Positions 178 to 19,690 of a stretch of 64,000 nucleotides of DNA are shown here, piece after piece. The position numbers and the translations under genes were made by a program. Origin of the DNA: Thermodesulfobacteriota bacterium (lineage in GTDB: Bacteria; Desulfobacterota; Desulfarculia; JACQYL01); contig CAXXLZ010000001.1 in assembly GCA_963675595.2 (NCBI GenBank), positions 576,001 through 640,000 on the forward strand, written 5' to 3'. How positions within the stretch are numbered: the first letter of the stretch is position 1; each line of letters starts with the position of its first letter. The notes beneath the pieces are model-generated. The model saw only the letters and a program-made list of their open reading frames with translations, was not told the origin of the DNA and ran no database searches.

Positions 178-178
178 A

Positions 179-853
179 ATGGACAGGAAAATAAAGATAC
201 TTCTGGCGGATGATCACACGATCGTCAGGCAGGGTTTGGAGAAACTGCTGGAGGTGGAACCCGACTTTCTGATCGCCGGACAGGCGCGTACCGGCAGGGA
301 GGCGGTGGATATGATTCAGGAACTCCACCCCGATGTGGTCCTTATGGACATTGCCATGCCGGTGTTGAACGGCATTGAAGCAACGCGTCAGATCAAAAGG
401 AACCATCCCGAAGTCAAGGTCGTCATCCTCTCCATGCACTCCCATGCGCATTATATTAGTGAGCTTTTCGAGGCCGGGATTTCCGGCTACCTCGTCAAGG
501 ATTCCACGGGGAAAGAAATCGTGGATGCGATCCATGCGGCGGTGCGCGGGGAGACCTTTCTGAGCCCCTCCATCTCCAAGAAGCTGGTGGACGACTACGT
601 GGCTCTGAAGCGAAGCACGCGCAAGGAAGACCTTTACAACACGTTGTCCAACCGTGAGCGAGAAGTCTTTCAGATGATCGCCGAGGGGCTGTCGACTAAA
701 GAGATCGCCGAAACGCTGTATATCAGCCCGAGCACGGTAAAGACGCATCGTGCCAACATCATGGAAAAACTACAACTCGAGAATCTTTCGAAGCTGGTTC
801 AGTTCGCCGCCAAGTTGGGGTTGACGGATATGGATGCGAACCCGGCGGCCTAG
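179..853 (+). CDS. NarL/FixJ-family response regulator (REC + LuxR HTH)
   Basis: LADDH, VLMDIAMP, GYLVK and the C-terminal LSNREREV...TVKTHRANIMEKL HTH. Confidence 0.95.
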   Translation: MDRKIKILLADDHTIVRQGLEKLLEVEPDFLIAGQARTGREAVDMIQELHPDVVLMDIAMPVLNGIEATRQIKRNHPEVKVVILSMHSHAHYISELFEAGISGYLVKDSTGKEIVDAIHAAVRGETFLSPSISKKLVDDYVALKRSTRKEDLYNTLSNREREVFQMIAEGLSTKEIAETLYISPSTVKTHRANIMEKLQLENLSKLVQFAAKLGLTDMDANPAA

Positions 854-1516
854 CCGCCACTCCCTTCCCGCAGGACCTCCTTCCCAACGAGCTCTACCCT
901 TAGGGTGTAGCGCACTTCAGGATTCCTCATTGTTTTGTTCAGAGTGTCCGGCTGTTCCGCAGTAGGTTTTGAACTGCGGAAACATCAACCCGGAGACGAT
1001 TCGACTCGTCGGCCCGAAGTCCGAGGAGCTGTCCGTTTGGAAAAAGTCCATTGTGACTTCAGTTAGTTATCATCGGGCTATGTTGGGCCGCGTGTTTTCG
1101 ATGGACGGTCACAAGAGTCATTGGAAGAAAAAATGGACCGTGGATAAGAAAAAAATCGTCTTTTGGACGATGGTAACCCGAAACCACTTTTCGATATACG
1201 GACTATTAGCGTGGCGCATAGCCATCCAGTGCGTCTGCGTTCCCCGATCACCCTGGCAGCAGGACGGGTCCGGCCTCCCCCGGGCCCGTGAAAGGGAAAG
1301 AACCTGAATACCCTGTCTTACAACAAATCAGGGCTCCATTGTGCGATTCGACTCGCGTCGGATAGCGCTCTCCATTTTCTATCCCATCCAACTCGAAGGT
1401 TTGTCGGAGCTTTTCGCCGCAGCCGTTTTCCCGCGCGGCAGCCCTGGGCTTGGGTTGCGGGGTGAAGCGCGCGACCGTGAGATAACCTTGAGCATTTATT
1501 CAGAAAAGGAGGAAAT

Positions 1517-2473
1517 ATGTTTAAGTTCGCTACTGAGCAGAAAGTCGCCGAAGTCGGAGGGGTGAAGTTTGGGGGTCAGCCGGGCGAGTATCCCTGTGTG
1601 TGCTGCGCTTCGATCTTCCAGAAGGGTGACAAGGTATTCGAAGGCAAGAAGAGGAAAGAAGGATTCAACGAGGAATACGGACTCGAGCTGTTACAGTCCG
1701 CGGAGAAGATGTGGGATGAAACCGGGGTTCCCATTATGGCGGACATTGTGGCGAATACCGGAGCGGAGTTTCAGCAGTTTATCGATTTTGTGACCAATAA
1801 TTCGAAGCTCCCCTTCTGCGTGGATGCCTGGGTCATGAAGCCCAAACTCGAAGGCGCCGCATATTGCGCTGAGAAGGGTCTTTTGGACCGCATGTTCTAC
1901 AACAGCTTGACGGTGTGGGAACAGGACCTGGAAACGGAGATCAAGGAAATCGCCGACATCGGCGTCAAGCACGTGCTTCTGGTTGCTTTCGATCAGGAAG
2001 ACCAAATGCCTTCCGGACGAATCACAGGGACCCAGAAACTACTGGATGTCATTGACAAGGTGGGCGCCAAATTTGAAACGATTTTCGTGGACACGTCGGT
2101 CATGAATGCTCCCGCGACGGCCATGTGCTCCATCGCCAACCGGATGGTCAAAGAGAAATGGGGATTCCCCGCATCGAGCGCTCCCAGCAACGGCTCCTAC
2201 ATGTGGAAAAAAGCCGCCCAGGACAAATGGGGATTCAAGGGCTGGTCCGCAACGGACGCTTCCCTCGAAGGGCTGTCCGCCTTCATGTATCACGACATGA
2301 TTTTCAGCGGTCCCATGGCGGGCTGCTCGCGCATTGCACCCGCGGTGGCGTTGGCGGAAGCTTTCCTGGCCACATGGGTGTTCGCCGAAACGAAGAAACT
2401 TCCCGAGTTGGCAACCCACCCGCTGTACAAGGTGTTCCCGGATTTCGCCGAGCAGATGAAGGGTATGATGTAG
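1517..2473 (+). CDS. MtrH/MtgA-like methylcorrinoid:tetrahydrofolate (pterin) methyltransferase
   Basis: N-terminus MFKF..EQKV..VGGVKFGGQPGEYP is typical of the MtrH family, and the end is HPLYKVF. SD AAGGAGG upstream. Confidence 0.88.
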   Translation: MFKFATEQKVAEVGGVKFGGQPGEYPCVCCASIFQKGDKVFEGKKRKEGFNEEYGLELLQSAEKMWDETGVPIMADIVANTGAEFQQFIDFVTNNSKLPFCVDAWVMKPKLEGAAYCAEKGLLDRMFYNSLTVWEQDLETEIKEIADIGVKHVLLVAFDQEDQMPSGRITGTQKLLDVIDKVGAKFETIFVDTSVMNAPATAMCSIANRMVKEKWGFPASSAPSNGSYMWKKAAQDKWGFKGWSATDASLEGLSAFMYHDMIFSGPMAGCSRIAPAVALAEAFLATWVFAETKKLPELATHPLYKVFPDFAEQMKGMM

Positions 2474-2536
2474 AGCGGAAGAGAATCCTGAAGCAGAAAA
2501 ACCATGTCCACAGGGGGACGAAAGGAGCGAGTAAGA

Positions 2537-3589
2537 ATGGCTGAAATGACGCCGAAGGAAAGAGTGCTTAGCCTGTTGAAGAGAGAACCCATCGATACCA
2601 TGCCCTTCTTCAGCGGTATGGGTATGGTGGTCATGCCGGGGATCAAGAAAGCCGGATTGAAGTTTCCTCAGGTGCACACGGACCCGAACAAAATGGCCCA
2701 GTCGGCGATCTGGTCCGCCAAGCTGATGGACTTTGATTGCGTGGTCATTCCTTACGACATGTGTATGGAATCCGAGGCCATGGGAAACAAGATCAGCTTG
2801 TACGAGGATTCCGAAGACATCCTCTATCCGACCATCCCCAATAAGCAATGGAAAACCATGGACGAGGTAGTGGTGCCCAAGAACATTATGGAATTGGGTC
2901 GCATGCCGCTGGTTCCCAAAGCTATTGAAATCATCAAGAAGGAAGCGCCGGAGTATCCCGTGGGGTGCTGGGTGCTCGGACCGTTCACCCAGACCGGCCA
3001 AGTTCTGGAACTGGACATGATCCTCAAGGCCGTTTTCAAGCAGAAGAGCCAGGTTGAAGCGCAGCTGGACAAGATGACCGAAATGGCGATCATTGAAGGA
3101 CAGGCCTTCCAGGCCGCCGGATGCGACTACATTACGCTCCGGGAGCCGGGGGTGGCCGCCGACCTGCTCAGCCCGAAAACGTTCAAGGAAATGATCAAGC
3201 CCAGACTGACCCGAATTCTCGAGGCTTGGAAGTCCCCGAAGATCCTCCATATCTGTGGTTCCTGCGACCCATTGGTGGAAATGATGGCCGATTGCGGCGC
3301 CGACGCCATCACGGTGGACATCAAGACCAGCATCGCCGACGCTCGAAAGAAGCTGGGCGACGATGTGTTGATCTTCGGGAACCTGGACACCTACAATATG
3401 ACGTGCAAGCCGGAAACGCCCAAAGAGATGGTGGTGGAAGAAATCAAGAAGACCATCGACAACGGCGTGGACGCGGTCATGCCCGGCTGCGACTTGTGGC
3501 CCGACATCAAGGAAGAGAATATGCTGGCTTGTGTCCAAACGACACACGAGTACGGCAAAAAACCCAGTCCGGCCGGCAAACGTTTATAG
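2537..3589 (+). CDS. MtaA/CmuA-family (UroD fold) Zn methyltransferase
   Basis: MTPKERV start, LGPFT, LHICG (HxC Zn ligands) and MPGCDL (third Zn ligand). Start moved to ATG 2537 behind AAGGAG. Confidence 0.92.
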   Translation: MAEMTPKERVLSLLKREPIDTMPFFSGMGMVVMPGIKKAGLKFPQVHTDPNKMAQSAIWSAKLMDFDCVVIPYDMCMESEAMGNKISLYEDSEDILYPTIPNKQWKTMDEVVVPKNIMELGRMPLVPKAIEIIKKEAPEYPVGCWVLGPFTQTGQVLELDMILKAVFKQKSQVEAQLDKMTEMAIIEGQAFQAAGCDYITLREPGVAADLLSPKTFKEMIKPRLTRILEAWKSPKILHICGSCDPLVEMMADCGADAITVDIKTSIADARKKLGDDVLIFGNLDTYNMTCKPETPKEMVVEEIKKTIDNGVDAVMPGCDLWPDIKEENMLACVQTTHEYGKKPSPAGKRL

Positions 3590-3628
3590 CAGTTGAAAGA
3601 CCTATAATCACGAAAAGGAGTTTGAGAC

Positions 3629-4300
3629 ATGGCGACGAAAGAAGAGATTTTGAAGGGACTTAGTGATTCCGTAGTGGAGTACAATGAAGACGGCGTTAAG
3701 GAATGGTCCAACAAAGCGTTGGAAGAAAAAGTGGACCCCCTTGAGGCGATCATGGACGGTTTGGCTCACGGCATGCAGATCGTGGGCGATCTCTATGAAC
3801 GTAATGAATACTTTGTGCCGGAAGTTCTGATGTGCGCCGATGCGCTTTACGCCGGTCTGGACATTCTTCGACCCCACGTGCCCCAAGAGCAAAGCGGCAA
3901 GATGAAGGGCCAGGTCGTCATCGGTTCCATCCAGGGCGACGTGCACGATATCGGTAAGAACTTGGTGAAGATGATGTTCGACGTAGCGGGCTTCGAGGTT
4001 TACGACCTGGGCCGCGACGTGCCTCTGGAGAACTTCGTGAAGGAGCAGCTCCGCACGGATTCGGAAATCGTGGCCATGAGCGCCATGATGACCACCACCA
4101 TGCTGGGCATGAAGAAGGTCATCAAGATGATCAAAGAAAAGAACCCCAACGTGATGATCATGTTGGGCGGGGCCCCCGTGACCCGTGACGTATCCACGCT
4201 GTTCGGCGCCGACGGCTACGCGGAAAGTGCCGGAAACGCGGTTACCGAAGGAATCAAGATGATTGGGCGCCTCAGGGAAGTGGAAGGCAAGAACAGATAA
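3629..4300 (+). CDS. Corrinoid (B12-binding) methyltransferase protein, MtaC/MtbC type
   Basis: Helical cap (EYFVPEVL), GDVHDIGKNLV (DxHxxG), SAMMTTT, MLGGAP. Confidence 0.95.
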   Translation: MATKEEILKGLSDSVVEYNEDGVKEWSNKALEEKVDPLEAIMDGLAHGMQIVGDLYERNEYFVPEVLMCADALYAGLDILRPHVPQEQSGKMKGQVVIGSIQGDVHDIGKNLVKMMFDVAGFEVYDLGRDVPLENFVKEQLRTDSEIVAMSAMMTTTMLGMKKVIKMIKEKNPNVMIMLGGAPVTRDVSTLFGADGYAESAGNAVTEGIKMIGRLREVEGKNR

Positions 4301-4477
4301 TGTGCGATCCGCCGTGGCCTTTTGGGGCACGGCGGGTTATGAAGGGTCCGGATTCCGTTGCCGGGACTGGTCTGGACGCGGGTCCGGATTCACCGCATAC
4401 GTGTTGGACGAACCGTGCGCGGGAACAAAGACGTTTCGCCGGAGAGGCGGAAGAGAACGACTGGAGGAAAGGCGTTA

Positions 4478-6535
4478 ATGGCAAACGACGATACTGTGAT
4501 GGTGATATTCCAACCTTCCGCTCGCCGGGGGCGTGTAAAAAAAGGCTTGAACATTATCGAAGCCTCGCGTGACATCGGTGTGGATATTGAGGCCCTGTGC
4601 GGGGAGAAGAAAGTCTGCGGAAAATGCAAGGTCCGCATCGAGGAAGGGTACTTCGAAAAATATAATATAACGTCCAACATGTCCCATGTTTCTGAATGGC
4701 AGGAAGAGGAAGCCAAGTTCATCAAGGGCAAGGAAAAGGAAGAAGGCTTTCGCCTCGGCTGCGTGGCCAAGATAATGGACGACGTCCTGATTTTCGTGCC
4801 CGAGGAATCCCGCGCCGGTAAGCAGGTGGTGAGCAAGGCGGCCCGCGACATCCATATCGACAACAACCCCGCGGTGAAAACCTACTATGTGGAAATGGAT
4901 CCGCCGACCTTTGAAGAGCCGAGAGGCGACTTTGAGCGCATCGAGGACGAACTGGAAAGAGAGTTCGGTCTCAAGAATCTCCGGCCGGACATCCAGTGCC
5001 TCAGAGACATTCCGGCTGCGGTACGAGACGGCGACTGGAAGGTTACCGCGTGGGTGTGGAACGACCGCGAGGTCATTCGGGTCATGCCCGGAAAAGTGGA
5101 AGACTCCTACGGGATCGCCATCGATATCGGTACCACGACGGTTGCCGGGTATTTCTGCAACCTTCGCACCATGGAGGTGATCAACACCCGTTCCATGATG
5201 AATCCCCAGTGTAAGTACGGTGAGGACGTCATGGCCCGGATCACCTACCATATGATGAACGAGGGCGGCCTTAAACGAATGAGCGATGAGATCATCGCCG
5301 GCTTGAATACCATCATCGACGACCTCGTCGCGGGAACTCATCCGCCCAAGGATCGCAAGAAAAAGAAGAAGGCGGAGGAGGAAGAGCTGGAGGACTTGCC
5401 GGAAAAAGAAGATGAGAGCAAGTACCTGTGCCTGGATCGTGAGGACATCGTTGACCTTACCCTGGTGTTCAACACGGCCATGCATCACATCTGCCTTCAG
5501 CTCGACCCGCAGTACGTCGGACTGGCTCCCTTTCCGCCGGTAATCCATAAGGGGCTCGACGTCAAAGCACGCGATTTGGGACTGAACCTCAACAAGTGCG
5601 CCTTCGTGCACGTGCTCCCCAATGAAGCCGGTTTCGTGGGCGCGGACAACGTGGGCGTGCTCATCGCCGAGGAGCCGTACAAGAAGGATGAGATGGCGCT
5701 GCTCATCGACATCGGCACCAACGGTGAATTGGTTTTGGGCAACAAACACAAGATGGTTTCCTCCTCCTGTGCCACCGGTCCGGCCTTGGAAGGCGCTCAG
5801 CTCAGCTACGGCATGCGGGCGGCCCCGGGTGCCATCGAGCGTATCGAGATCGATCCGGAAACACACGAGGTCAGTTACAAGACCATCGGTTGTGATGCGT
5901 GGTCCAAGTTCGCGGATAAGAAGGACCTTAAGACCAAGGGCATCTGCGGGTCAGGTATTCTGGACGTGCTGGCCGAACTGTACAAGTCCGGCGTCATCAA
6001 CAAGGCCGGGCGGTTCAGCAAGGACCAGAAGTCCAATCGGTACCGGATCAATCCCGAAACCAAGCAGCCTGAATTCGTCATCGCGTGGTCCGACGAAACT
6101 TCCATTAAGAAGGACGTGGTGATTTCGCAGAAGGACATCCGGCAGATTCAGTTGGCCAAGGGTGCCTTGTATTGCGGGTGCAAGCTCATGATGCGCCGCA
6201 TGGGCGTGGATAAGGTGGACACCATCAAGATCGCCGGTGCGTTCGGTACGCATGTGGACCGGGCCAAGGCGTTGATCATGGGGCTGTTCCCCGACTGTGA
6301 AATCGAAAAGATTCATTCCGTGGGCAATGCCGCCGGTGACGGCGCGCGCTGCGCACTGCTGAACAAGGAGAAGCGGACTGAGGCCAACTGGGTGGCCAGA
6401 AACGTGGAATACATCGAACTGACGGTGGAAGAGGATTTCCAGAAGCAGTTCATGGAAGCCATGCAGATTCCGCACATGACCGATCCTTTCCCGCATCTGA
6501 GAGGCGTGGTGAAAGACGAGATTCTGGACCAGTAG
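4478..6535 (+). CDS. ASKHA-family reductive activator of corrinoid proteins (RACo/RACE) with N-terminal 2Fe-2S domain
   Basis: CGEKKVCGKC...RLGC ferredoxin motif, IDIGTTT, YGEDVMARI, GFVGAD, IDIGTNGE, CATGPALEG, GICGSG, GNAAGDGA. Likely start is ATG 4478 behind GGAGG. Confidence 0.95.
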   Translation: MANDDTVMVIFQPSARRGRVKKGLNIIEASRDIGVDIEALCGEKKVCGKCKVRIEEGYFEKYNITSNMSHVSEWQEEEAKFIKGKEKEEGFRLGCVAKIMDDVLIFVPEESRAGKQVVSKAARDIHIDNNPAVKTYYVEMDPPTFEEPRGDFERIEDELEREFGLKNLRPDIQCLRDIPAAVRDGDWKVTAWVWNDREVIRVMPGKVEDSYGIAIDIGTTTVAGYFCNLRTMEVINTRSMMNPQCKYGEDVMARITYHMMNEGGLKRMSDEIIAGLNTIIDDLVAGTHPPKDRKKKKKAEEEELEDLPEKEDESKYLCLDREDIVDLTLVFNTAMHHICLQLDPQYVGLAPFPPVIHKGLDVKARDLGLNLNKCAFVHVLPNEAGFVGADNVGVLIAEEPYKKDEMALLIDIGTNGELVLGNKHKMVSSSCATGPALEGAQLSYGMRAAPGAIERIEIDPETHEVSYKTIGCDAWSKFADKKDLKTKGICGSGILDVLAELYKSGVINKAGRFSKDQKSNRYRINPETKQPEFVIAWSDETSIKKDVVISQKDIRQIQLAKGALYCGCKLMMRRMGVDKVDTIKIAGAFGTHVDRAKALIMGLFPDCEIEKIHSVGNAAGDGARCALLNKEKRTEANWVARNVEYIELTVEEDFQKQFMEAMQIPHMTDPFPHLRGVVKDEILDQ

Positions 6536-6586
6536 GGGAAGACATCCTCGGAGGGCTCAGTGCCCTCCGGGGGATTTCGAGGTTGT

Positions 6587-6913
6587 ATGAAAGTTCGAGT
6601 GGATCCTGGAATTTGTGGATTTCATTGTAAGATTGAAGCGGTAAAACAAGAGAAGTATCGAGTTAAGTTGAGCATCGAGAGCGAATGCAAACTTATTCGG
6701 CATTTGGCTGATGAAGTCGTGGAAATGGACATGAGAGACGTGGTGGGAAAACCGCACGGCACGAGCGTGTTGGTCCAAAACGCGGGTCGCTGCCGTCTTC
6801 ACGCGGCATGTCCCATACCCATGGCGTGTATCAAGGCTGTCGAGGCGGAACTAGGTTTGGCGTTGCCGCGACCGGTTCGAATCGACTTCGAGGAGGAAGA
6901 CGGGCAAAGTTAA
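6587..6913 (+). CDS. Small Cys-rich conserved protein (DUF6951-like)
   Basis: PGICGF...SEC...CRLHAACPIP..IKAVEAELGLALP pattern. Follows the activator gene. Confidence 0.7.
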   Translation: MKVRVDPGICGFHCKIEAVKQEKYRVKLSIESECKLIRHLADEVVEMDMRDVVGKPHGTSVLVQNAGRCRLHAACPIPMACIKAVEAELGLALPRPVRIDFEEEDGQS

Positions 6914-7525
6914 GGAGGCCTTTCGCGCACCATGCTTGGCGAGTCGACAAGGTGGCCCCTATAGCGCTATAATTTTGTTTAAACGGTATAAATAAGCTGT
7001 GAGAGACCGATGACGGTTGTTGCACCTGCGAACAGATCTCTGCCGCGGTTCCCCTCGGGCGGGAGGTGACGTTACCCTTCCGGCGCCGGGATGCGTTCGG
7101 TGGTGTTCGACCGAAACCTCGCAGGTTCGCCGTGGGGTCTTGCGCGGAAGTCCGGCCCCGTCTCACGCCGCCGAAGAGTTCTTTCCGGCGGGAAACGCCC
7201 TGTAGATCAAAGACGTTCGTCTCAGATCATCCATCACTTTCCCAACGCATTCATTGAAGCATCGATCGTAGATAGGTTCTGCCAGGGTTCCCCGGTGACT
7301 CGATCCGGAGCTTTACTCGAGGCTCTCGAGAAGAGTGACCGCGATCCTGAACGTCCAACCGGTTCACATTGGAGACCAACGGACGCCCCCATTAGGCGTC
7401 TCAAGGCTTACCCTCGGACACTTTTGTTACTCCCGTTGGGGGGCGGGAACAACCAAGGTTCCGGCAGGGTGAAGTGTGAAGTAAGGTGAAGGTAAGAAGG
7501 ACCGAAACCAAGTAAGGAGGTACAC

Positions 7526-8587
7526 ATGGCGAAACAGCTACTCATTGATGCGTACCACGGAAAGAAGACCAAGGGTGTTCCGTGGGTGCCCTATGCCGGG
7601 GTTCATTGCGCATTCGTCATCGGGGAACCCGGTGACAAGTACATGCAGGACCCCGAGCTCCTGGCCAAGGGCGTGGTGGAGACGGCCAAGCTGTACAAGG
7701 CGGACGGAATTCCGTTGGTCTTCGACCTTTCCGTTGAGGCCACTTCCATGGGTTGCGGCATCAAATGGTGGCCGGATAACGTGCCCAGCGTAACGACGCA
7801 CCCCGCCGCCGGCTGCAGCGTAGCGGAAGCCGGACTGAAGATTCCCGGTCCCACCGACGGTCGCTGGCCCGTCCTCATCGAAGCGGCCAAGATCGCCAAA
7901 CCTCAACTGGACGAACTGGATTGCGCACTGATGGGCCTGCTTTGCGGGCCTCTCACCTTGGCCGCCCATCTCAAAGGCGTCAAAGTGTTTACGGATGTCT
8001 ACAAAGACAAAGCGGCCGCGCATGACGTAATCTCGTTCTCAGGCAAGGTGGCAGCCAAATCCGCCGAGATCTACGCCGACATGGGATGCGACATCATCGC
8101 CATCGTCGATCCCGTGGCTTCGCAGATCAAAGATGAAACCTTCCAAGAATTCGTAACCCCCAATTGCCAAGAAGCCATCAAAGTGATCCACGAACACGGA
8201 AAGACCTCCTCTTTCTTCATTTGTGGAGACGCCACCAAGGTGATGAAGTCCGTGGCTACCCTCGGGACCCATGGATTCGCCATCGACGAGCAGTTAAACA
8301 TGAACTTTGTCCGCGACATCGCTCTGAAATACGGCGTTGGATTCGGCGGCAACTTGAAGCTCACCCTGGCTCTTTCCCTGGGTCTGCTTTCTCCTCGTGA
8401 AGACGCCATTGTGAGTCTGGCCGCGGGAGGGTGCCACGGCTACACCTTCGCCCCTGGGTGAGACATGCCTTACGATGTTCCGGTGGAACATATGCAGCAG
8501 GCCATGGAGGCGAGAGACTGGTACTACGAATACTACGCCGCCTATCCCGATGATCCCGATATCGCGAAGACCTTCAAGGTCGCGTAA
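7526..8587 (+). CDS. Putative selenocysteine-containing MtaA/UroD-fold methyltransferase (353 aa, Sec312)
   Basis: TGA at 8459-8461 falls in FAPG-U-DMPYDVP, equivalent to PG-C-DL of the paralogue. The frame stays open for 41 more codons to TAA at 8585-8587, which overlaps the SD of the next gene. Confidence 0.88.
8475..8491 (+). promoter_or_regulatory. Bacterial SECIS-like hairpin
   Basis: ATGTTCC-GGT-GGAACAT, a perfect 7-bp stem with a G-containing loop starting 20 nt after the UGA. Confidence 0.75.
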
Positions 8588-8598
8588 GGAGGTTGGAT

Positions 8599-8985
8599 AT
8601 GGCAACCATCAACATCGATATCCTCACACTGGACAGCGTTCAATGCGCGGCGTGCGGATATATGACGGAGGCCATCGCGGCCCTGCCGGATGACGTCCAG
8701 CAGCTGATTCAGTACAAGGAATGGTCGATCAAGCAGAAGGAGGGCATCGGTAAGTTCCTCGAGCTGAAGGGGAAGGTGCTTCCCACCATCTGTATCCAGG
8801 GTGACCTGGTATTTGAGAGTATCATTCCCCAATACGAGGAATTGATCGACGAAATGGCCAAAAGGGCTCCCAGCCCGGAGGTCGCCGATCGGCTCAAATC
8901 TCTCAGAGAGAAGGGCTTCGACTTCGAAAAAATCCAGGAGAACCTGGCGAAAGCCGGTGCGGGGCAGAACACCAGAGCGAATTAG
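8599..8985 (+). CDS. Thioredoxin-fold protein (CxxC), methyltransferase-associated
   Basis: IDILTLDSVQCAACGYM and cis-Pro motif LPTICI. SD AAGGAGG at 8586-8592. Confidence 0.85.
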   Translation: MATINIDILTLDSVQCAACGYMTEAIAALPDDVQQLIQYKEWSIKQKEGIGKFLELKGKVLPTICIQGDLVFESIIPQYEELIDEMAKRAPSPEVADRLKSLREKGFDFEKIQENLAKAGAGQNTRAN

Positions 8986-9018
8986 CCCCGCTCCCCCGGC
9001 TTCTAGCCGAAACGATTT

Positions 9019-9051
9019 CCATAACCGCCGGGTGCTTCCCGGCGGTTATGG
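9019..9051 (+). terminator. Strong hairpin (terminator or mRNA-stabilising stem)
   Basis: CCATAACCGCCGGG-TGCTT-CCCGGCGGTTATGG, a 14-bp stem with only a weak U-tract. Confidence 0.55.
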
Positions 9052-9246
9052 GATTTCGCCCCTCCGATCCTCGATAAGCGTTTTATTCGCCGAGAACGGG
9101 AACCCGGATTTTTGAACAGATGAGTTCCCGCGAGGTTGGGGGCGAGGGAATTGTCTGCGTGAAGCAGGGGAGACGAAACGCGCATCAAACGGGGATCTTT
9201 TCCCGGCAACTATTTAAGATGAGTCAGGAAAGGGGTGTTCTTCAGG

Positions 9247-9585
9247 TTGCCTAAAATCCATTTGGAGATCATCTATCAGGGAGAGCATTGCCCACAGTGT
9301 TTTTACATGCTCGAGGCCGTTGAGACGGTGGCGCCCAAGTTTGGGGACCGTATCAGCTATGAACTCATCGAGTACACCAAAAACAAAGCTCACGCCCGTC
9401 GTTTCTATGAACTTTCCGTTTCCCTCCATGGCGAAAAAGCGGTTCGAGGGCTGGTCAGGGTAGCGCCGATACCCTCCATATTCATCGGCGGCAAACTGGT
9501 TTTCGATTGTATTCCGCCCTTGGATGAACTCGAAGAGACTCTCGCCGGGCATCTGGCCTTGGCCGAGGGGCAGGCTTCGGAGTGA
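9247..9585 (+). CDS. Thioredoxin-fold protein (CPQC)
   Basis: IIYQGEHCPQCFYM...PIPSIFIGG. Start is either TTG 9247 or GTG 9235. Confidence 0.82.
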   Translation: MPKIHLEIIYQGEHCPQCFYMLEAVETVAPKFGDRISYELIEYTKNKAHARRFYELSVSLHGEKAVRGLVRVAPIPSIFIGGKLVFDCIPPLDELEETLAGHLALAEGQASE

Positions 9586-9591
9586 ATTCCC

Positions 9592-9876
9592 ATGGCCAAA
9601 GTTCGATTGGAGGTCGTTTACGAGGGGGACCATTGTATTCCGTGCGTCTACATGGCGAGACTCGTAGAGGAAGTGGTCCCGCGTTTCGGTGAAAAGGTGA
9701 CTTGGGAGAAAATCGTGCTGCGGGACAAGGCAGGCGCCAAACGGTTTCATGAGCTGTCCGTTGCCATGGGCAGACCGGCTCCCATACCCTCCATCTTTAT
9801 TGACGGAGAACTACGATTTTCCATAACACCGGCGGCCGAGGACCTGGAAGCCGCCTTACGTGAGTGCTTGGACTGA
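9592..9876 (+). CDS. Thioredoxin-fold protein (CIPC)
   Basis: VVYEGDHCIPCVYM...PIPSIFIDG. Clear paralogue of the previous gene. Confidence 0.85.
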   Translation: MAKVRLEVVYEGDHCIPCVYMARLVEEVVPRFGEKVTWEKIVLRDKAGAKRFHELSVAMGRPAPIPSIFIDGELRFSITPAAEDLEAALRECLD

Positions 9877-9900
9877 GTTGCGTGTCCATGGTTCGGATGC

Positions 9901-10830
9901 ATGTACATTTTTAAGACTACATCCGTATGTGCGCGGGAGATTCACTTCGAACTTGATGGAGAAGTGATCCGATGGGTCCGCTTTGTGGGTGGCGGGTGTC
10001 CGGGAAACGCGGATGCGGTGGCGCGACTGCTGGAGGGCAAGACCCTTGATAGCGTGATCCCGATGCTTCGGGGGATCCCCTGCAGGGAAGGCACCTCGTG
10101 CCCAGATCAGCTGGTGCGTGCTTTTGAGTCGGTCCGGGCCGGGACAATGGCTCCCGCTCCCGCGATTCCCGTGGAGTCGGAGACCGAACCGTTGTGCCGG
10201 GTCGCCGTTGTGGCCGACGTCAATGGGAACCTCCGCGCGTTGGAGCGCTTCGCGGGTGTTTTTGAAACCGAAGATGTGCAGGCCGTGTATTGTTTGGGAA
10301 ATCTTGTTGCTCGCGGTATGGATAACGACTCTGTGGTCGGGTGGGTCCGGAAAAGCGGGTGGAGGTGTCTTCAAGGTTCTCTGGACCGGGCGTCCGCTCA
10401 CTTGTGCTCCGGAAACGCGAACGACGATAACGTACCTGTTCTCGAACCCAGAAACCGGGACTTCCTGGTAACCCTCCCACTGATGCGAACCTTTTTGATG
10501 GACACTCGAAAGGTTTTGGCATTTTACGATGGATTCATTCAGGATCTCGAAGGGTTCTCGGACTATGCGCCTTTTTCCACCGAGATCATTCAGGTCTGTG
10601 ATCTCAGTGAATACTTGAGCGACGAAAGCGTGTTTCCCGCTTTGGAGGCTATGACCGGGCAGTTTTCCTCGGATGTGGTGCTTTTCGGACACACCGGGAA
10701 AAACAAACACGTACGGTTGGGAGAGGTGGACTTCGTCAATGTAGGAGCGCTTTCGCTCAGCTCGTCCGGCACCTATACCTTGTTGACCCTCGATAATGGA
10801 AAACTCGTAGTGGAATTCAAACGCATTTGA
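9901..10830 (+). CDS. TSCPD/TIGR03905-like 4-Cys domain fused to a degenerate calcineurin-like metallophosphoesterase domain
   Basis: N-terminus VCAREI...GGCPGN...GIPC..GTSCPDQL. C-terminus ADVNGN, CLGNLV, LQGSLD, FGHT, NVG. Confidence 0.8.
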   Translation: MYIFKTTSVCAREIHFELDGEVIRWVRFVGGGCPGNADAVARLLEGKTLDSVIPMLRGIPCREGTSCPDQLVRAFESVRAGTMAPAPAIPVESETEPLCRVAVVADVNGNLRALERFAGVFETEDVQAVYCLGNLVARGMDNDSVVGWVRKSGWRCLQGSLDRASAHLCSGNANDDNVPVLEPRNRDFLVTLPLMRTFLMDTRKVLAFYDGFIQDLEGFSDYAPFSTEIIQVCDLSEYLSDESVFPALEAMTGQFSSDVVLFGHTGKNKHVRLGEVDFVNVGALSLSSSGTYTLLTLDNGKLVVEFKRI

Positions 10831-10871
10831 GTTGAGAGGTCGCCAAGAGCGGGTTGTATTAGGAGGATCAG

Positions 10872-11150
10872 ATGGCAAGAGTGACAGTGGACGTGCTGCT
10901 GACGGATTTCAGGCAGTGACTGGCCTGCGTCTACATGGCGGAATCGGTAAAGGCTTTACCGAATGAGATACAAGACCTGATCGAAGTAAGAGAGTGGGAC
11001 ATGCGCACAAGGGAGGGAGTGGTCAGGTTCAAGCAATTGAAGGCGAAATCTCTTCCCAGCGTTGCCCTCAACGACGAACTCGTGTTCGAAGCCAATATCC
11101 CTCCTCAGGAAGACCTGATTCAGGCAATTAGGGACCGATACGTCGGATGA
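10872..11150 (+). CDS. Putative selenoprotein, thioredoxin-fold UxxC protein (92 aa, Sec16)
   Basis: SD AGGAGG at 10861 and ATG 10872 give MARVTVDVLLTDFRQ-U-LACVYMAES, in frame with the track ORF at 10935. It aligns with DSVQ-C-AACGYMTEA of 8599..8985. Confidence 0.9.
10944..10962 (+). promoter_or_regulatory. Bacterial SECIS-like hairpin
   Basis: TCGGTAAA-GGC-TTTACCGA, a perfect 8-bp stem with a GG loop 32 nt after the UGA at 10917-10919. Confidence 0.65.
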
Positions 11151-11515
11151 AAGGGGGAAGGTGCGCGGGCATGCGCGCTGCTTTTCACAAGTGTCTTTGC
11201 GTTTCATCACGGAAGGAAGGCGTCGCGAACGGTGCTCTGCCGTACCGGCGATGCCGGAGACGGTTTCTGGAAGGCGGACGACACCCGTGAGGCTTGAGAA
11301 TGCTCTTTGGTGCGGTCGTACCGGCCCGGTCGGCTTTTACGCTGCGGGTGGTTGGAACGGCCCGGAGAGGACGGTGGGGGCTCTTGGCGAATCCTCCGCA
11401 TGCCGAATTCGTCGATTCGGAGTCAAACGAAATTTCGTAACCGGACTTTAGCTTGAAATACAGGGAGTGCCGGGGGAATCCATACGACGGCTGTTTTCCC
11501 CTCGCGAAGGTCTAC

Positions 11516-12499
11516 ATGCTTTTTCTAGAAGAATTCAAAGCGCATGGATTCAAGTCTTATGCGGAGGAAGTCACCGCTTCATTCAATCCCGGGATCGGAG
11601 TGATCATCGGGAACAACGGGGTGGGAAAATCCAACATTCTTGACGCCATCACTTGGGCGTTGGGAGAGGACGATCTTGGGAAACTCAGATGCTACTCCAC
11701 GGAGGACTTGTTCTACACGGGGGGGAAGGACCATCCACGTGCGGAAGAAGTCCGGGTGGAACTGCGTTTCAAAAAGGGACCCGATAAGAACGATGAAAGT
11801 TTCGTGACCTCGCGTTGTCTGGACCGATCCGGAATCGAATCCTATTTCATCGAGGGAGATCGACTTTCCAAGGACGCCTACCGAGAGCGCCTTTTTGAGT
11901 TTGGGCTCGGGGATGCCCTCAAGTCCCTGGTGAGGCAGGAGGAACTCAACGACTTCCTGCAACTGCACCCCTGTGATCGTCTGGAGTACTTTCGGTTCTT
12001 TGTTGAATCATCGGCGGAAGAATCGGACAATGGCGCGGGGATTGAGGCCTTCGACGCCGAGTTTCGCAGACTTTACAGGGGCATGATGGCACGAGGTGAT
12101 GGGCGTGTTTTCATTGATCGGTTCAACGGTCGCTCAGGACTCGAAATAGAGGTGACTTTTCCCGACAAAGGGACCAAGAAGGCACGGTTCCTCTCGGGAG
12201 GTGAGAAAACCGTGGCGTCGCTTGCGGCGAAGCTTGCGCTGTTCGGCAGGCTGCAGTCTCCCTTCTACCTGCTCGACGAGGTGGAACCCTCTCTGGATTG
12301 GACGAACCATCGGAACATGTCCAATTTACTGAAGGACTTGGCAAAACGACGGCAACTGATCATGATCACCCATCTCAGGAGCACCATCGAGGTGGCCGAC
12401 ACGGTTCACGGGGTAAGAACCCAGTTTGACGGCAGCTCGTTTATGAAGTTCCATTTCGTCATGGATAAGAGGTTACTCCGCCTCTACAAATGCTGTTGA
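11516..12499 (+). CDS. Mini SMC-type ABC ATPase (head only, about 327 aa) ending in Cys-Cys
   Basis: GFKSY, Walker A GNNGVGKSN, Q-loop VRQEE, signature LSGGEK, Walker B LLDEVE, H-loop ITH. No long coiled coil or hinge. Confidence 0.85.
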   Translation: MLFLEEFKAHGFKSYAEEVTASFNPGIGVIIGNNGVGKSNILDAITWALGEDDLGKLRCYSTEDLFYTGGKDHPRAEEVRVELRFKKGPDKNDESFVTSRCLDRSGIESYFIEGDRLSKDAYRERLFEFGLGDALKSLVRQEELNDFLQLHPCDRLEYFRFFVESSAEESDNGAGIEAFDAEFRRLYRGMMARGDGRVFIDRFNGRSGLEIEVTFPDKGTKKARFLSGGEKTVASLAAKLALFGRLQSPFYLLDEVEPSLDWTNHRNMSNLLKDLAKRRQLIMITHLRSTIEVADTVHGVRTQFDGSSFMKFHFVMDKRLLRLYKCC

Positions 12500-12538
12500 T
12501 AATCCTTGGGCATTGACTTTGTGGTGCGTAGGAAGGTT

Positions 12539-12844
12539 ATGATGGATTCGGAGAAGGCACTGGACGTCCTGAGTAACATTATTTTCGACAATGCGCTTCC
12601 TCATACGGTCTACATGTTGGTGGGCGTCCGGTGTCCTTATTGTGGAAAGTCCGATCGAATACGACCATTGGAGTCGCCCGGCGAGGTATCCGGCCTGTCC
12701 GAATCGGAGTTCAGGCTTTACCGGGACGCATGGGACGCTTTGACGACGGATGACGGAACGTTGGGGGTCTGCTTTTTCTGTCGTCAGGTGATCGGCCTGG
12801 ACGTCGACTTGTCCCGTGCGGGTGCACTCACGGAACTGGAGTGA
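12539..12844 (+). CDS. Small Zn-ribbon-like protein
   Basis: CPYC and CFFC pairs. Lies within the operon. Confidence 0.65.
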   Translation: MMDSEKALDVLSNIIFDNALPHTVYMLVGVRCPYCGKSDRIRPLESPGEVSGLSESEFRLYRDAWDALTTDDGTLGVCFFCRQVIGLDVDLSRAGALTELE

Positions 12845-12857
12845 GGAGTAGGAATTC

Positions 12858-13931
12858 ATGACGCAACCATCGTCGATTGCAGGCTCGGCCAAAGCCAAGG
12901 TGGTACTGCTGGCGGGGTTTCTGGGGGCGGGAAAGACCACGCTGTTGAAGCGAATCTTATCCTGGGAGGGCGACCTTTCGGACACCGTTGTGCTGGTGAA
13001 TGAGTTCGGCGACGTGGGCATCGACGGAGCTCTGCTTCAGCAAGCGGGTTCCGACGTGATCGAACTGACCAGCGGCTGCATTTGCTGCACGCTGGCGGCC
13101 GACTTAATCCAGAGTCTGAAAGGCATCGCGGAGCGTTTCAATCCGAAACGAATCATGATCGAAGCCACGGGTGTTGCAGATCCCACTTCCATTACGGCCG
13201 TGCTGGATCAGCCTTTCATCAGGGATGTAATGGAGCATCAATCCACGCTGACCGTTCTTGACGCCGATTTCTGGGAGGCGAGGGAAAACTTCGGGCCGCT
13301 GTTTTATCGTCAGTTGAGCGAGGGGGATCTGATTCTTCTCAACAAGATCGACTTGCTCGAACCGGAACAGGTCCCCGTGTTCCTAAAGGAGATTCATCAA
13401 GAGTTTCCCGGTAGTAGGGTAGTGCCTACGGTGCACTGCGCAGTGGACCCGGACACTTTGTGGAATGTGCGATCCAAACGACACGGCGGAACCGAGTTGG
13501 CTCCTTTTTTCCCCACGCTCTCCGTCGAGCAAGGCGATGAGCAGGGAACCGCCGAACACCACCCACATCATCATAGTGATCATCATCACCATGGGCACGA
13601 TCACCACCATGGGCACGATCACCACCATGACTGCGAGTCCCATGCGGGGATTCAGGCCCCGGAGGCGGGATATGTCAGCTTCTATTTTCGGGACGACCGG
13701 CCCTTGGACGAAAGCCTTTTCGCGAGTTTCCTGGCGGAATTACCTTGGGAGGTGTTTCGGGTGAAAGGTCCGGTACGTTTCCCCGACAAGACCTTGTTGG
13801 TGAATTTCGTCGGAGGCAAGGCCGAATGGATCGACTGGGAGGACGTGGGCACAAGCCTTGCCTTTGTCGCTTGGAAAGTGGACTCCCGGGAGATTCTTTC
13901 AAAGCTGGAACGGTGTTTTGCCCCTTCTTGA
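12858..13931 (+). CDS. COG0523/CobW-family G3E GTPase metallochaperone with His-rich insert
   Basis: GFLGAGKTT, VNEFG, GCICC, EATG, LNKID, a His-rich stretch and C-terminal RVKG. Confidence 0.93.
   Translation: MTQPSSIAGSAKAKVVLLAGFLGAGKTTLLKRILSWEGDLSDTVVLVNEFGDVGIDGALLQQAGSDVIELTSGCICCTLAADLIQSLKGIAERFNPKRIMIEATGVADPTSITAVLDQPFIRDVMEHQSTLTVLDADFWEARENFGPLFYRQLSEGDLILLNKIDLLEPEQVPVFLKEIHQEFPGSRVVPTVHCAVDPDTLWNVRSKRHGGTELAPFFPTLSVEQGDEQGTAEHHPHHHSDHHHHGHDHHHGHDHHHDCESHAGIQAPEAGYVSFYFRDDRPLDESLFASFLAELPWEVFRVKGPVRFPDKTLLVNFVGGKAEWIDWEDVGTSLAFVAWKVDSREILSKLERCFAPS
13582..13629 (+). repeat. Tandem 18-bp repeat encoding (HHHGHD)n
   Basis: ATCACCATGGGCACG/ATCACCACCATGGGCACG units, about 2.5 copies. 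Confidence 0.75.
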
Positions 13932-13973
13932 AGGACTGAGGACCGACAATTACCGTCCAGGGAGGAAGAGAAG

Positions 13974-14219
13974 ATGAAAATCCAGGTATTAGGCCCAGGC
14001 TGCAAGAGATGCAATCAACTTTACGACAATGTCGTTGAAGCGGTGAAGAGCCTGAATCTCGCCGACCGGGCAGAGATTGTCAAAGTGGGAGACTTGGACG
14101 TTTTTGCAAAATACGGCGTGTTCACCACGCCCGGTCTGGTCATCGACGAGCAGGTCATATCCGTGGGTAAGCTATTGACCGTTCAGGAAATTGAAAAAGA
14201 GATCAAAGCGAGGATCTAA
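13974..14219 (+). CDS. Small redox-active disulfide protein (MTH895/TM0996 thioredoxin family)
   Basis: MKIQVLGPGCKRC...YGVFTTPGLVID. Confidence 0.9.
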   Translation: MKIQVLGPGCKRCNQLYDNVVEAVKSLNLADRAEIVKVGDLDVFAKYGVFTTPGLVIDEQVISVGKLLTVQEIEKEIKARI

Positions 14220-14221
14220 TC

Positions 14222-15229
14222 ATGGCGGGAAAGACGTTCGTCTTTCTGATCACCGGCTTTTTGGGATCGGGGAAGACCACATTTCTCAACCGGGTTATCC
14301 GCCAATTCCCGGGAGATCGCAAGCTGATGATCCTGATGAATGAATTCGGCGAGGTCGACGTGGACGGTACGCTGGTCGAGGGTGAGGACCTCGATATGGT
14401 GGAGATCAGCAAAGGTTCCATCTTCTGTGCCTGTGTTAAGACCGATTTCGTCAAGGCGCTGAATTCCATCGCCCAGACCATCCGTCCCGACGTGCTGCTC
14501 ATCGAATCCACGGGCGTGGCCAACCCATCCGACTTGAAGAGAGATCTGAGACTATCGATTTTTAAGGATCGATTCCAATTTCAAGAGCAGTTCTGCATGA
14601 TCGACGCCGGTCACTTCCTGGACGCCTACGGTGCCTACCAGTCCATTGAGAAGCAGTTGGCTTCGTCCACGGTTTTCTTGATCAACAAGACGGATACCGC
14701 CGATGGGGGAACCATCGCTCGGATCAAAGAGGTGGTTCGGGAGCACCATCCGGACCCCGTGTTTCACGAAACGACTTTCGCCGAAGTCGATGTAAGTCAT
14801 CTTCTCTTGCCCGGAGAAACCGAGGAAGCGTTCTCGGAAGAGGGACCGGATACACCCATGACTCCGGAAGAACTGGACAGCTACTGTGAAAAATTGTTAG
14901 AAGATCCTGAAGCGCAGGTGACCCCTCCGGACCGTCTTCTTTCCGCGGTGTACCGGTGGGAAGGCGAAAGTATTGATGCCTTCAAGAAAACGGCCGGCAA
15001 TCTTCCTAAAGGGATTGTGCGTTCCAAGGGGTTCCTGGTGGATGGCGAGGAAACGGTCCTGTTCAGTTATGTTCTGGGGGACTGGAAGTTGATGCCGCGA
15101 CAGGTTCCCGACGGAAGGGCGGGGCAGAAAAACCTGATCGTGTTTATCGGTTCCCCGGAGTCCATGGCGGAGCTTGCCGAAAGAGCCTCGGAGGCGAATC
15201 TTTCGCCGGCGCCCAAGAACGAAGCATGA
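14222..15229 (+). CDS. Second COG0523/CobW-family GTPase
   Basis: GFLGSGKTT, MNEFG, variant metal motif GSIFCAC, ESTG, INKTD, RSKG. Confidence 0.9.
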   Translation: MAGKTFVFLITGFLGSGKTTFLNRVIRQFPGDRKLMILMNEFGEVDVDGTLVEGEDLDMVEISKGSIFCACVKTDFVKALNSIAQTIRPDVLLIESTGVANPSDLKRDLRLSIFKDRFQFQEQFCMIDAGHFLDAYGAYQSIEKQLASSTVFLINKTDTADGGTIARIKEVVREHHPDPVFHETTFAEVDVSHLLLPGETEEAFSEEGPDTPMTPEELDSYCEKLLEDPEAQVTPPDRLLSAVYRWEGESIDAFKKTAGNLPKGIVRSKGFLVDGEETVLFSYVLGDWKLMPRQVPDGRAGQKNLIVFIGSPESMAELAERASEANLSPAPKNEA

Positions 15230-15266
15230 CCACTCAAAGCGTCCCAAAACGGAACTGGAGAACGGA

Positions 15267-15566
15267 ATGATTACGGTGATTGCTACGCTGGAAGCCAAAG
15301 AAGGAAAGGAAGAAGCTCTGGAGAAGGCCCTGTCGCAGATCATTGAGCCCACGAGAAAAGAGGGCGGTTGCATCAACTACGATTTGCACCGCACATTGGA
15401 CAACCCGAAGGTGTTCGTGTTCTATGAAAATTGGACGGGTCGCGCCGAGCTGGACGCCCATTTGAGCGCCCCTCATATGGTGGATTTCATCGGCAAGGCG
15501 AAGGAGCTTCTCGCGCGGCCTTTGGATGTCTCTTTGCTCGAAATGCTCTCCGAACCCGCCTCATAA
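15267..15566 (+). CDS. Antibiotic biosynthesis monooxygenase (putative quinol monooxygenase) family protein
   Basis: TRKEGGCINYDLH...FVFYENW...LDAHL..PH. Start behind GGAG. Confidence 0.85.
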   Translation: MITVIATLEAKEGKEEALEKALSQIIEPTRKEGGCINYDLHRTLDNPKVFVFYENWTGRAELDAHLSAPHMVDFIGKAKELLARPLDVSLLEMLSEPAS

Positions 15567-15668
15567 TCACGCCGACTGATCCACGCCCTCGTCGCCTTCC
15601 GGTACACGCCGCGACGGGGGCCGAGTTTTTGTCCCGTATTTTGAGTTCACCGCATCAAGCGTAATAGA

Positions 15669-16562
15669 ATGGACCCCAAGGATAACCCTTCGCGACCGGA
15701 TCGGAAACCGCCGTGGCTCAAGCGACGGTTATCGGCGGGAGAGGTGCGGGACGAAGTTCGGGGGCTTCTTAAGGAGAGCTCCCTGCACACGGTCTGCGAG
15801 GCCGCTCGATGCCCCAACCTATCCGAGTGTTTCTCTCGGAGGACGGCCACCGTTCTGATTCTGGGCGACCGCTGCACGCGCAACTGTGCGTTTTGCGCTG
15901 TTGAACACGGCGCTGCGAATCCGCCGGATCCCGAAGAACCGAATCGCGTGGCCGACTTGAGCACGAAACTGGGGTTACGGTACATCGTGGTGACCTCCGT
16001 GACCCGAGACGACTTGGCGGACGGCGGAGCCCACCAATTCGCCGAAACCATCCGCGCGATCCGGACGCGGATGCCCTCGACCGGTGTGGAGGTTCTGGTG
16101 CCGGATTTTCAGGGGTCGGAAGGCTCATTGCGGGTTGTGCTCGAGGCGGGTCCCGACGTGCTGAACCACAACATGGAAACCGTTCCTCGACTCTATTCAG
16201 AGGTACGTCGCGGAGCGGACTACCGCCGGTCCTTGAGATTGCTTCGTTCAGCCTCCGATTTCTCCTCTTCGGCGACCAAGTCCGGTCTTATGTTGGGGCT
16301 CGGTGAGACGGCCGAAGAAGTCCGAGGAGCCATGGCGGATCTTGTTGAGGCGGGTTGTCGCATCCTGACCCTTGGCCAGTATCTCAGACCCTCACCGAGC
16401 CACTATCCGGTGAAACGGTATGTGCACCCCGAGGAGTTTGAAAAGTGGGAGGGGGAAGGGCGCGATATGGGGTTCGAGGCCGTGACCGCAGGGCCTTTCG
16501 TCCGGAGTTCCTATCGAGCGGGCGAAGTGTTTCAAACCCTGCTTTCGCGAAATCGGGATTGA
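15669..16562 (+). CDS. lipA: Lipoyl synthase
   Basis: KPPWLK, TVCEAARCPNLSEC, CTRNCAFC, TSVTRDDL, GQYLRP, VRSSY. Confidence 0.96.
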   Translation: MDPKDNPSRPDRKPPWLKRRLSAGEVRDEVRGLLKESSLHTVCEAARCPNLSECFSRRTATVLILGDRCTRNCAFCAVEHGAANPPDPEEPNRVADLSTKLGLRYIVVTSVTRDDLADGGAHQFAETIRAIRTRMPSTGVEVLVPDFQGSEGSLRVVLEAGPDVLNHNMETVPRLYSEVRRGADYRRSLRLLRSASDFSSSATKSGLMLGLGETAEEVRGAMADLVEAGCRILTLGQYLRPSPSHYPVKRYVHPEEFEKWEGEGRDMGFEAVTAGPFVRSSYRAGEVFQTLLSRNRD

Positions 16563-18532: not shown

Positions 18533-18539
18533 GTCGATT

Positions 18540-19661: not shown

Positions 19662-19690
19662 GGGATCTCCGCGCATGTTGAGTCGTGCCT

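Follow-up and report, generated by a model that had tools for sequence, protein, structure and literature searches.

We analysed a 64,000-nucleotide (nt) stretch of contig CAXXLZ010000001.1 (positions 576,001 to 640,000, forward strand) from the Thermodesulfobacteriota bacterium assembly GCA_963675595.2, referred to here as the window, and found that a gene of the UroD/MtaA family at 7526–8587 very probably encodes a real selenoprotein that databases record as a truncated protein. Comparison between genomes shows one gene for a predicted 353-residue selenoprotein of UroD/MtaA fold, in which UGA 8459–8461 would be decoded as selenocysteine (Sec) with the help of a hairpin. Our favoured reading as a whole, to which we assign a probability of about 80%, is that of a Sec-decoded, MtaA-like corrinoid methyltransferase that carries Sec at the position of the distal Cys, has lost the His of the site and works with a thioredoxin-like partner, TrxL.

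An in-frame TGA in a UroD-family gene

7526–8587, + strand: predicted Sec-containing UroD/MtaA-family coding sequence; 353 codons including U312; ATG at 7526; Pfam URO-D; 54 orthologous loci
8216–8224, + strand: F231-I232-C233, at the place of the MtaA H-x-C zinc motif
8459–8461, + strand: in-frame TGA, predicted U312; follows ...YTFAPG; aligned codon TGA in 53 of 54 loci
8475–8491, + strand: hairpin AUGUUCC-GGU-GGAACAU, 13 nt past the UGA; core GUUCC/GGAAC at 8477–8481 and 8485–8489; triloop starting with G

The start codon at 7526 is preceded by a Shine–Dalgarno sequence (SD; AAGGAGG at 7514–7520). According to an earlier note made from the letters of the window (the original prediction), the open reading frame (ORF) appears to stop at TGA 8459–8461 while the frame continues to a TAA at 8587 that abuts the SD of the next gene, and these coordinates hold: 41 further open codons follow the TGA and end at TAA 8585–8587, which overlaps the SD (AAGGAGG, 8586–8592) of the next gene (ATG 8599). 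The TGA is unchanged in DNA contigs from runs X1, X2 and X6, one of which represents a different strain (41 differences in 1597 bases). Contigs from an RNA library (run X5) cover 8143–8469, 8555–8716 and other pieces but, because DNA can occur in such a library, are not used as evidence of expression.

The original prediction presupposed a genome with selA, selB, selC and selD. In the genome (6.79 Mb, 98% complete), selA (621 bits), selB (404 bits), selD (386 bits) and tRNA-Sec (77 bits, anticodon TCA) were all found with scores above the curated cut-offs. The selD gene carries one in-frame TGA of its own, and behind this UGA lies a hairpin at a spacing similar to that of 8475–8491.

Conservation of the TGA and of the protein beyond it

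Among about 5.8 billion proteins searched, 1068 relatives came up, of which the best 120 were inspected for length: 111 of them have exactly 311 residues, three have 307 and six have 341–346. The exact length of 311 residues means that 111 of these 120 proteins stop at the TGA site. Five of the six long homologues have Cys at the Sec site and one, P0011, has Trp. P0011 (SPGWDMPYD) is full-length and lies inside the Desulfobulbaceae Sec clade. The Trp codon TGG is one base away from TGA, and the Trp could reflect either genuine replacement or a fault in the assembly.

Scanning one genome per prokaryotic species, we obtained 54 orthologous loci from other genomes. By their record titles, these belong to Desulfobacterales and other Thermodesulfobacteriota, to Bacillota (Desulfotomaculum copahuensis, Peptococcaceae, Desulfovirgula) and to metagenome-assembled genomes (MAGs) labelled Spirochaetia, SAR324 and Myxococcota. 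The aligned codon is TGA in 53 loci and TGC in one (L058, a Desulfomonilaceae MAG). In all loci that reach far enough, the frame past the TGA is open to a second stop at codon 343–347 (358 in L054), and across the 54 loci the 31–35 codons after the TGA are kept as protein (DMPYDVPxEH..Q..EA..W....YP), with D313, P315, Y316, H322, Q325 and E328 fixed while synonymous sites vary. Alternation of TGA with Cys codons and conservation beyond the TGA, both anticipated in the original prediction, are thus present. A nonsense mutation or a sequencing error at the TGA was excluded.

These data also bear on the possibility that the TGA is a true stop behind a 311-residue product, the downstream conservation coming from a separate small ORF, from read-through with a standard amino acid or from decay. 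The 111 database entries of 311 residues are annotated in this way, and one homologue has TGG/Trp at the site. Yet 53 of 53 TGA loci keep the frame unbroken and have neither a start codon nor an SD for a separate ORF, the Cys forms are continuous proteins, and no nonsense mutation would survive unaltered in several phyla. The complete Sec machinery, the nucleotide-level selection on the hairpin and the place of the tail as a barrel helix aligned with MtaA in the structure model (both described below) point the same way, and we regard a true stop as highly improbable.

A quick maximum-likelihood tree places the Trp form and seven Cys forms singly and on long branches within a clade of 53 Sec forms, and its starred branches force at least five changes. 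Because the Cys and Trp forms are scattered singly among the 53 Sec forms, this tree, the root of which is not established, suggests that Sec is the older state in the clade and that Cys has replaced it repeatedly. One Cys form is a paralogue in the genome of the window (C2:2857594–2858622; locus L089 9595–10635), which is 72% identical to the Sec protein, has TGC at the site and is the sister of the Sec gene with a support of 92. This paralogue has no thioredoxin-like neighbour and adjoins a Fer4 and CCG-domain protein and an MFS transporter.

A hairpin under nucleotide-level selection

The original prediction described a perfect hairpin, ATGTTCC-GGT-GGAACAT, at the distance expected for a SECIS element (selenocysteine insertion sequence). 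The hairpin is present at 8475–8491, and its significance comes from conservation across genomes, not from stability. The core GUUCC-GNN-GGAAC, 15 nt past the UGA, is found in 52 of the 53 aligned TGA sequences, and the first base of the triloop is G in all 53. Locus L054 has a shifted, compensated hairpin (CGUUCCC-GUG-GGGAACG) despite an altered protein (VGN for xEH), and in L063 GAC is paired with CGT. In both Cys genes seen as DNA (L058 and the paralogue in the genome of the window), the loop is CAU.

Synonymous variation was assessed in a gap-free alignment of the window and 51 TGA loci (n = 52), leaving out L026 (which ends eight codons past the TGA), L054 (which has lost two codons) and the Cys form L058. 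Synonymous change was absent from only three of 173 conserved degenerate codons, V318 (GTT), P319 (CCG) and E321 (GAA). These three codons make up the hairpin stem GUUCC/GGAAC and the first loop base, and the remaining conserved Val, Pro and Glu codons have codon entropies of 0.69–1.97 bits. The core pattern GTTCCGNNGGAAC (13 letters) matches the window once against 0.13 matches expected, and at least one match occurred in 12 of 100 shuffles; what raises the hairpin above chance is its conservation across genomes. A search of positions 1–20000 of the window against Rfam (E up to 0.1) returned no match.

An MtaA-like fold with changes at the zinc-ligand positions

The protein matches Pfam URO-D with an E-value of 3.4e-45 and 155 bits (cut-off 23.9). 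The NCBIfam models NF004889 (114 bits, cut-off 244) and NF040654 (106 bits, cut-off 400) are missed, as is the MtaA/CmuA model weighed below, and no more specific NCBIfam model matches. With the Pfam cut-off exceeded and the NCBIfam cut-offs missed, the product of 7526–8587 is best described as a member of the URO-D superfamily and not of the curated MtaA/CmuA family. The sole sequence match in the PDB is MtaA of Methanosarcina mazei (4AY7/4AY8; E-value 8e-24, 25–26% identity). An AlphaFold2 model built from 45 sequences has a mean predicted local distance difference test score (pLDDT) of 95.6 and a predicted template modelling score (pTM) of 0.93, and its best fold match is again 4ay8_A (TM 0.86/0.89, root-mean-square deviation 2.2). 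In this model, the tail beyond the TGA forms a helix of the barrel domain with a pLDDT of about 95 up to residue 330; the MtaA alignment reaches residue 334.

In the alignment to 4ay7_A, 'sfficgd' stands opposite 'vlhicgn' and 'fapgUdmp' opposite 'lapgcgia', so that F231, C233 and U312 face the H, C and C of MtaA, and D254 and E255 align with its 'vee'. The predicted Sec312 and Cys233 occupy the places of the two Cys ligands of MtaA. The substitution of the His in H-x-C by FFICG, which the original prediction had noted, is borne out by F231 aligning with the His of MtaA 4AY7 ('lhicgn'). The prediction was also right that two paralogues in the window have Cys at the position of the TGA, namely MPGCDLWP (2504–3589) in the alignment and SSGCEIPP (27529–28542, - strand) by translation. 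Of the zinc ligand set His-x-Cys...Glu...Cys, the His is replaced by Phe231 and the distal Cys by the predicted Sec312, and Cys233 is kept. The zinc ligands of MT2-A (MtaA) are described as those of MetE (PMC539065). Among the homologues (alignment A1), C233 is invariant and F230, F231 and I232 are nearly so.

Among 1.84 billion cluster representatives searched, a single Cys relative reached 55% identity; after a gap, relatives at 31–39% followed, which also have F-x-C instead of H-x-C. In five relatives of about 35% identity (P0128, P0130, P0134, P0136, P0159), the UroD-like part (F-x-C...C) is followed by a C-terminal CxxC thioredoxin-like domain.

A likely thioredoxin-like partner and a probable second selenoprotein

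8599–8985, + strand: TrxL, thioredoxin-like CxxC protein of 128 amino acids; weak match to NF047660 (35 bits, cut-off 105)
9235–9585 (HCPQC) and 9592–9876 (HCIPC), + strand: two tandem HUIPC-family thioredoxin-like genes, Cys forms (NF047660)
10872–11150, + strand: predicted second selenoprotein, thioredoxin-like UxxC (RQULACVYM), 92 codons; TGA-Sec at 10917–10919; unannotated and invisible under translation table 11

A TrxL-type ORF, with the strongly conserved motif ...LTLDSVQCAACGYM..., is the next gene downstream of the Sec gene in 50 of the 54 loci. It was not seen in L057, L068 and the Cys locus L058, L026 has no sequence at this place, and TrxL is also absent beside the Cys paralogue in the genome of the window. 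TrxL is homologous to the C-terminal domain fused to the UroD-like part in the five relatives named above, which argues for a direct functional link with the Sec protein, and it is likely to be the redox partner of the latter.

The two HUIPC-family genes score 84.8 bits (9235–9585) and 132 bits (9592–9876) against the NF047660 cut-off of 105. Sec forms of this family (H-U-[IV]-P-C) occur in nine other loci (among them L029, L031, L035, L038, L039, L040, L052 and L056), and a motif scan of the window and the 54 loci found 27 TGA versus 22 TGC/TGT codons at the first position of the CxxC motif. The putative selenoprotein gene at 10872–11150 matches NF047660 with 46 bits, below the cut-off. About 25 nt past its TGA lies a hairpin, UCGGUAAAG-GCU-UUUACCGA, and across 18 loci both the TGA and the hairpin are conserved, the latter with paired changes. 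The original prediction was silent on the linked thioredoxin-like partner, on this second selenoprotein gene and on the Cys paralogue elsewhere in the genome.

A rival reading is that the site holds no zinc. In a zinc-free site, Sec312 would be the nucleophile or methyl carrier (Se-methyl), or would form a selenenylsulfide with Cys233 at each turnover that is reduced by TrxL and the other thioredoxin-like proteins, so that methyl transfer would be coupled to redox chemistry. Consistent with this, the His ligand is lost throughout the clade and in the relatives of about 35% identity (FxC), three to five thioredoxin-like genes, some with Sec, stand in the cluster, TrxL accompanies the gene in 50 of 54 loci and neither Cys-form locus seen as DNA, and a thioredoxin domain is fused to distant relatives; there are thioredoxin-reductase-like genes in four loci and Fer4/CCG proteins near L048 and the Cys paralogue. 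However, Cys233 and the acidic pair D254/E255 opposite 'vee' of MtaA remain, so a metal site with three protein ligands may still be formed, and the neighbourhood keeps COG0523 metallochaperone genes in 39 of 54 loci. To our knowledge, no UroD-fold methyltransferase works by a zinc-free Sec/redox route, and we consider such a site conceivable but rather unlikely.

Gene neighbourhood

1517–2473, + strand: MtrH-like methyltransferase
2504–3589, + strand: canonical H-x-C UroD/MtaA paralogue (MPGCDLWP)
3629–4300, + strand: corrinoid protein
4358–6535, + strand: RACo-type activase
6560–6913, + strand: DUF6951
9901–10830, + strand: TSCPD/metallophosphoesterase
11453–12499, + strand: SMC_N ATPase
12858–13931 and 14222–15229, + strand: two COG0523/CobW-type GTPases
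13974–14219, + strand: MTH895/ArsE-type thioredoxin

All of these genes were assigned by family search. The upstream order MtrH, UroD, corrinoid protein, RACo and DUF6951 (1517–6913) is repeated in many loci. Between DUF6951 and the Sec gene lies a 610-nt gap (6914–7525), the place that DUF2284 takes in 17 other loci; in the window it contains no DUF2284 frame, convincing ORF, family match or Rfam match. The CobW-type gene at 12858–13931 has a His-rich stretch and ends with a TGA in frame with the ArsE-type thioredoxin gene at 13974–14219. These are probably two genes, because a spacer of 14 codons separates them and the thioredoxin starts at an ATG of its own. A third corrinoid set is found at 26020–29487 on the - strand (RACo-like, 26020–27525; a UroD paralogue without the Cys of H-x-C, 27529–28542; corrinoid protein, 28849–29487).

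Neighbours of the Sec gene were counted over the 54 loci; in many of these the flanks are short:

CobW-type GTPase: 39 of 54 loci
HUIPC-type thioredoxin: 35
corrinoid protein: 30
canonical UroD paralogue: 26
RACo activase: 23
DUF6951: 21
ArsE-type thioredoxin: 20
DUF2284, directly upstream: 17
MIP channel fused to thioredoxin: 6
thioredoxin-reductase-like: 4

The fusion of a MIP protein (aquaporin/glycerol-facilitator family) with thioredoxin lies inside the cluster in L015 (7780–8907), L017, L020, L023, L025 and L067. In two Bacillota loci (2 of 54), the gene order is mtaB, mtaC, a CobW-type gene, a ferredoxin-like gene and then the Sec gene; MtaB is located at 1060–2490 in L019 and at 2840–4228 (- strand) in L022, 3.5 kb from the Sec gene. 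A figure legend on the Desulfofundulus methanol methyltransferase operon shows the same order, and the products of this operon are described as rising with methanol and cobalt (Sousa et al.). From this gene order, we infer that the 'uroporphyrinogen decarboxylase' of the Desulfofundulus operon would be the orthologue of the Sec protein. Subfamily 13 of COG0523 is described as co-localising with corrinoid methyltransferases (PMC2770081). We also weighed the mec (dichloromethane) cassette and rejected it, since thioredoxin and CobW genes are missing from its gene list.

Some of the neighbours would fit a metalloid (As, Sb, Se or Te) as the substrate on the Sec/Cys pair. The enzyme would then be a corrinoid-dependent methylase or demethylase, with thioredoxins reducing an oxidised intermediate as in the S-adenosylmethionine (SAM)-dependent ArsM. 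ArsM depends on thioredoxin, and MtaA methylates metalloids with methylcobalamin. In the gene clusters, DUF2284 is directly upstream in 17 of 54 loci, the MTH895/ArsE-type thioredoxin is present in 20 and the MIP channel–thioredoxin fusion in six, and the site is left with soft ligands only. A review of prokaryotic selenoproteins (PMC13188914) lists a selenoprotein family that joins DUF2284 to arsenite methyltransferase, and also lists Sec forms of ArsM. Against this, no ars gene was identified in the cluster, although no search was aimed at arsM, acr3 or arsC; MIP is found in only six of 54 loci, COG0523 and DUF-type neighbours accompany ordinary corrinoid methyltransferases too, and every link is an association of names. 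A metalloid substrate appears unlikely.

Proposed mechanism

In our favoured reading, that of a Sec-decoded MtaA-like methyltransferase, Sec312 would lie next to Cys233 where the barrel opens, taking the position that the distal Cys ligand has in MtaA's zinc/thiolate site; the His ligand has been lost (Phe231). The enzyme would act as MtaA does, transferring methyl between a methylated corrinoid protein and a substrate with a soft atom (S or Se), and the Sec/Cys233 pair would be the reactive or metal-binding site. The original prediction had likewise proposed that Sec may substitute for a metal ligand or serve as nucleophile or methyl carrier. TrxL may keep this pair reduced or recycle it at every turnover, and the COG0523 GTPases may load metal, as proposed for other corrinoid methyltransferase clusters. 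The module appears to join different corrinoid systems, with MtrH, UroD, corrinoid protein and RACo in the window and MtaB/MtaC in two Bacillota loci. Given this variety of upstream systems, an MT2-like place between corrinoid and acceptor seems more likely than that of a substrate-specific first methyltransferase. We regard it as improbable, though worth stating, that corrinoid methyl transfer here needs an encoded Sec and a built-in thioredoxin relay, that is, a redox-coupled transfer acting on Se or As species or on an unusual thiol.

Several observations weigh against the favoured reading. The score against the NCBIfam MtaA/CmuA model TIGR01463 is 126.4 bits, below its cut-off of 235.4, and, with the His ligand lost as well, zinc binding is uncertain. 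The homologue P0011 has Trp at the predicted Sec site. The hairpin is short, with a stem of 5–7 base pairs and a triloop; folding of the single sequence 8455–8530 gave z = 0.34, with 125 of 200 shuffles folding as well, and RNAalifold reported no covarying pairs, as the core of the hairpin is invariant. The stem letters GUUCC/GGAAC are also present in both Cys genes, and therefore part of the conservation may reflect recent descent or constraint on the coding sequence. The substrate, the direction in which methyl moves and what TrxL does are proposed from gene order only, and both the selenium content and the full-length product are predicted from sequences, as would also suit a true stop at the TGA.

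Comparison with known systems

The Sec protein resembles MtaA (4AY7/4AY8) in its fold, in the two Cys positions (Cys233 and 312) and in the corrinoid protein and activase genes nearby. It differs in having Phe for the His of H-x-C, a predicted Sec for the distal Cys and a dedicated thioredoxin-like partner, and in its carriers, which are sulfate reducers and Bacillota rather than methanogens. In type 1 mlp clusters the Mlp proteins, and in Methanococcus voltae the dimethylselenide genes, are likewise MtaA homologues outside methylotrophic methanogenesis, accompanied by corrinoid protein and activase. As described in a preprint by Kountz and Balskus (PMC10418091), 87% of the species carrying type 1 mlp clusters have Sec machinery, and ClMlp2 moves the methyl group from methylcobalamin to selenide. 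By this description, on which the comparison is based, Mlps differ from the Sec protein in not being presented as Sec-containing; the parts of the preprint text compared here do not mention CobW, DUF families or arsenic, and thioredoxin appears in them only in a reference.

Of the neighbouring genes, 9592–9876 is a member of the HUIPC family NF047660, and 9235–9585, 8599–8985 and 10872–11150 are weaker relatives; Sec forms occur in the same cluster elsewhere. This family, credited to Haft and Tolstoy 2025 in the review text (PMC13188914), covers these neighbours but not the UroD-fold protein. The pyrrolysine (Pyl) methylamine methyltransferases MttB, MtbB and MtmB are also corrinoid-dependent and use a recoded stop codon for an active-site residue; they differ in having another fold, Pyl at UAG and the role of a first methyltransferase acting on amines. 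Such Pyl enzymes are described in marine Deltaproteobacteria as well (PMC8318568). The Sec forms of ArsM, as outlined in PMC13188914, share with the Sec protein a Sec in a soft-ligand substrate site of a methyltransferase, but ArsM is SAM-dependent, has another fold and uses no corrinoid.

The original prediction stated that no characterised selenoprotein of this family was known, and the main texts of the reviews and databases named here contain no listing of one. A literature search, with supplements and Haft and Tolstoy 2025 outside its scope, found no paper naming a UroD, MtaA, corrinoid or O-demethylase selenoprotein. The text of the prokaryotic selenoproteome review of May 2026 including its family table (PMC13188914) contains none of the terms uroporphyrinogen, MtaA, URO-D, PF01208, TIGR01463 and methylcobamide, and no such family is listed in the main texts on BSepDB and deep-Sep, in the Haft and Gwadz preprint or in NCBIfam 20.0. 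In the source databases the relatives bear ordinary UroD-family or MtaA names. Selenoproteins as such and enzymes like MtaA are known already; what would be new is Sec in the place of a zinc ligand, the loss of the His and a thioredoxin module of the enzyme's own.

Implications

More than 100 database clusters of the predicted Sec protein are stored 42 residues short and without the probable catalytic residue, and gene callers, proteomics searches and metabolic models will therefore miss the real product. The sequences come from sediments, subsurface and wastewater, where sulfate reducers and anaerobic Bacillota carry the gene. If the proposed identity of the Desulfofundulus operon is true, published proteomes could be searched again for C-terminal peptides. 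For enzymology, the protein would place selenium at a zinc-ligand position in a thiol-alkylating TIM barrel, of which we know of no characterised case. With up to three kinds of Sec thioredoxin-like proteins predicted in the cluster, it offers a system for asking why methyl transfer depends on selenium. If the thioredoxin relay considered above were true, the enzyme would be a candidate for the enzymes, so far unknown, that methylate and demethylate metalloids under anaerobic conditions, and a Sec counterpart of the pyrrolysine-dependent methylamine methyltransferases.

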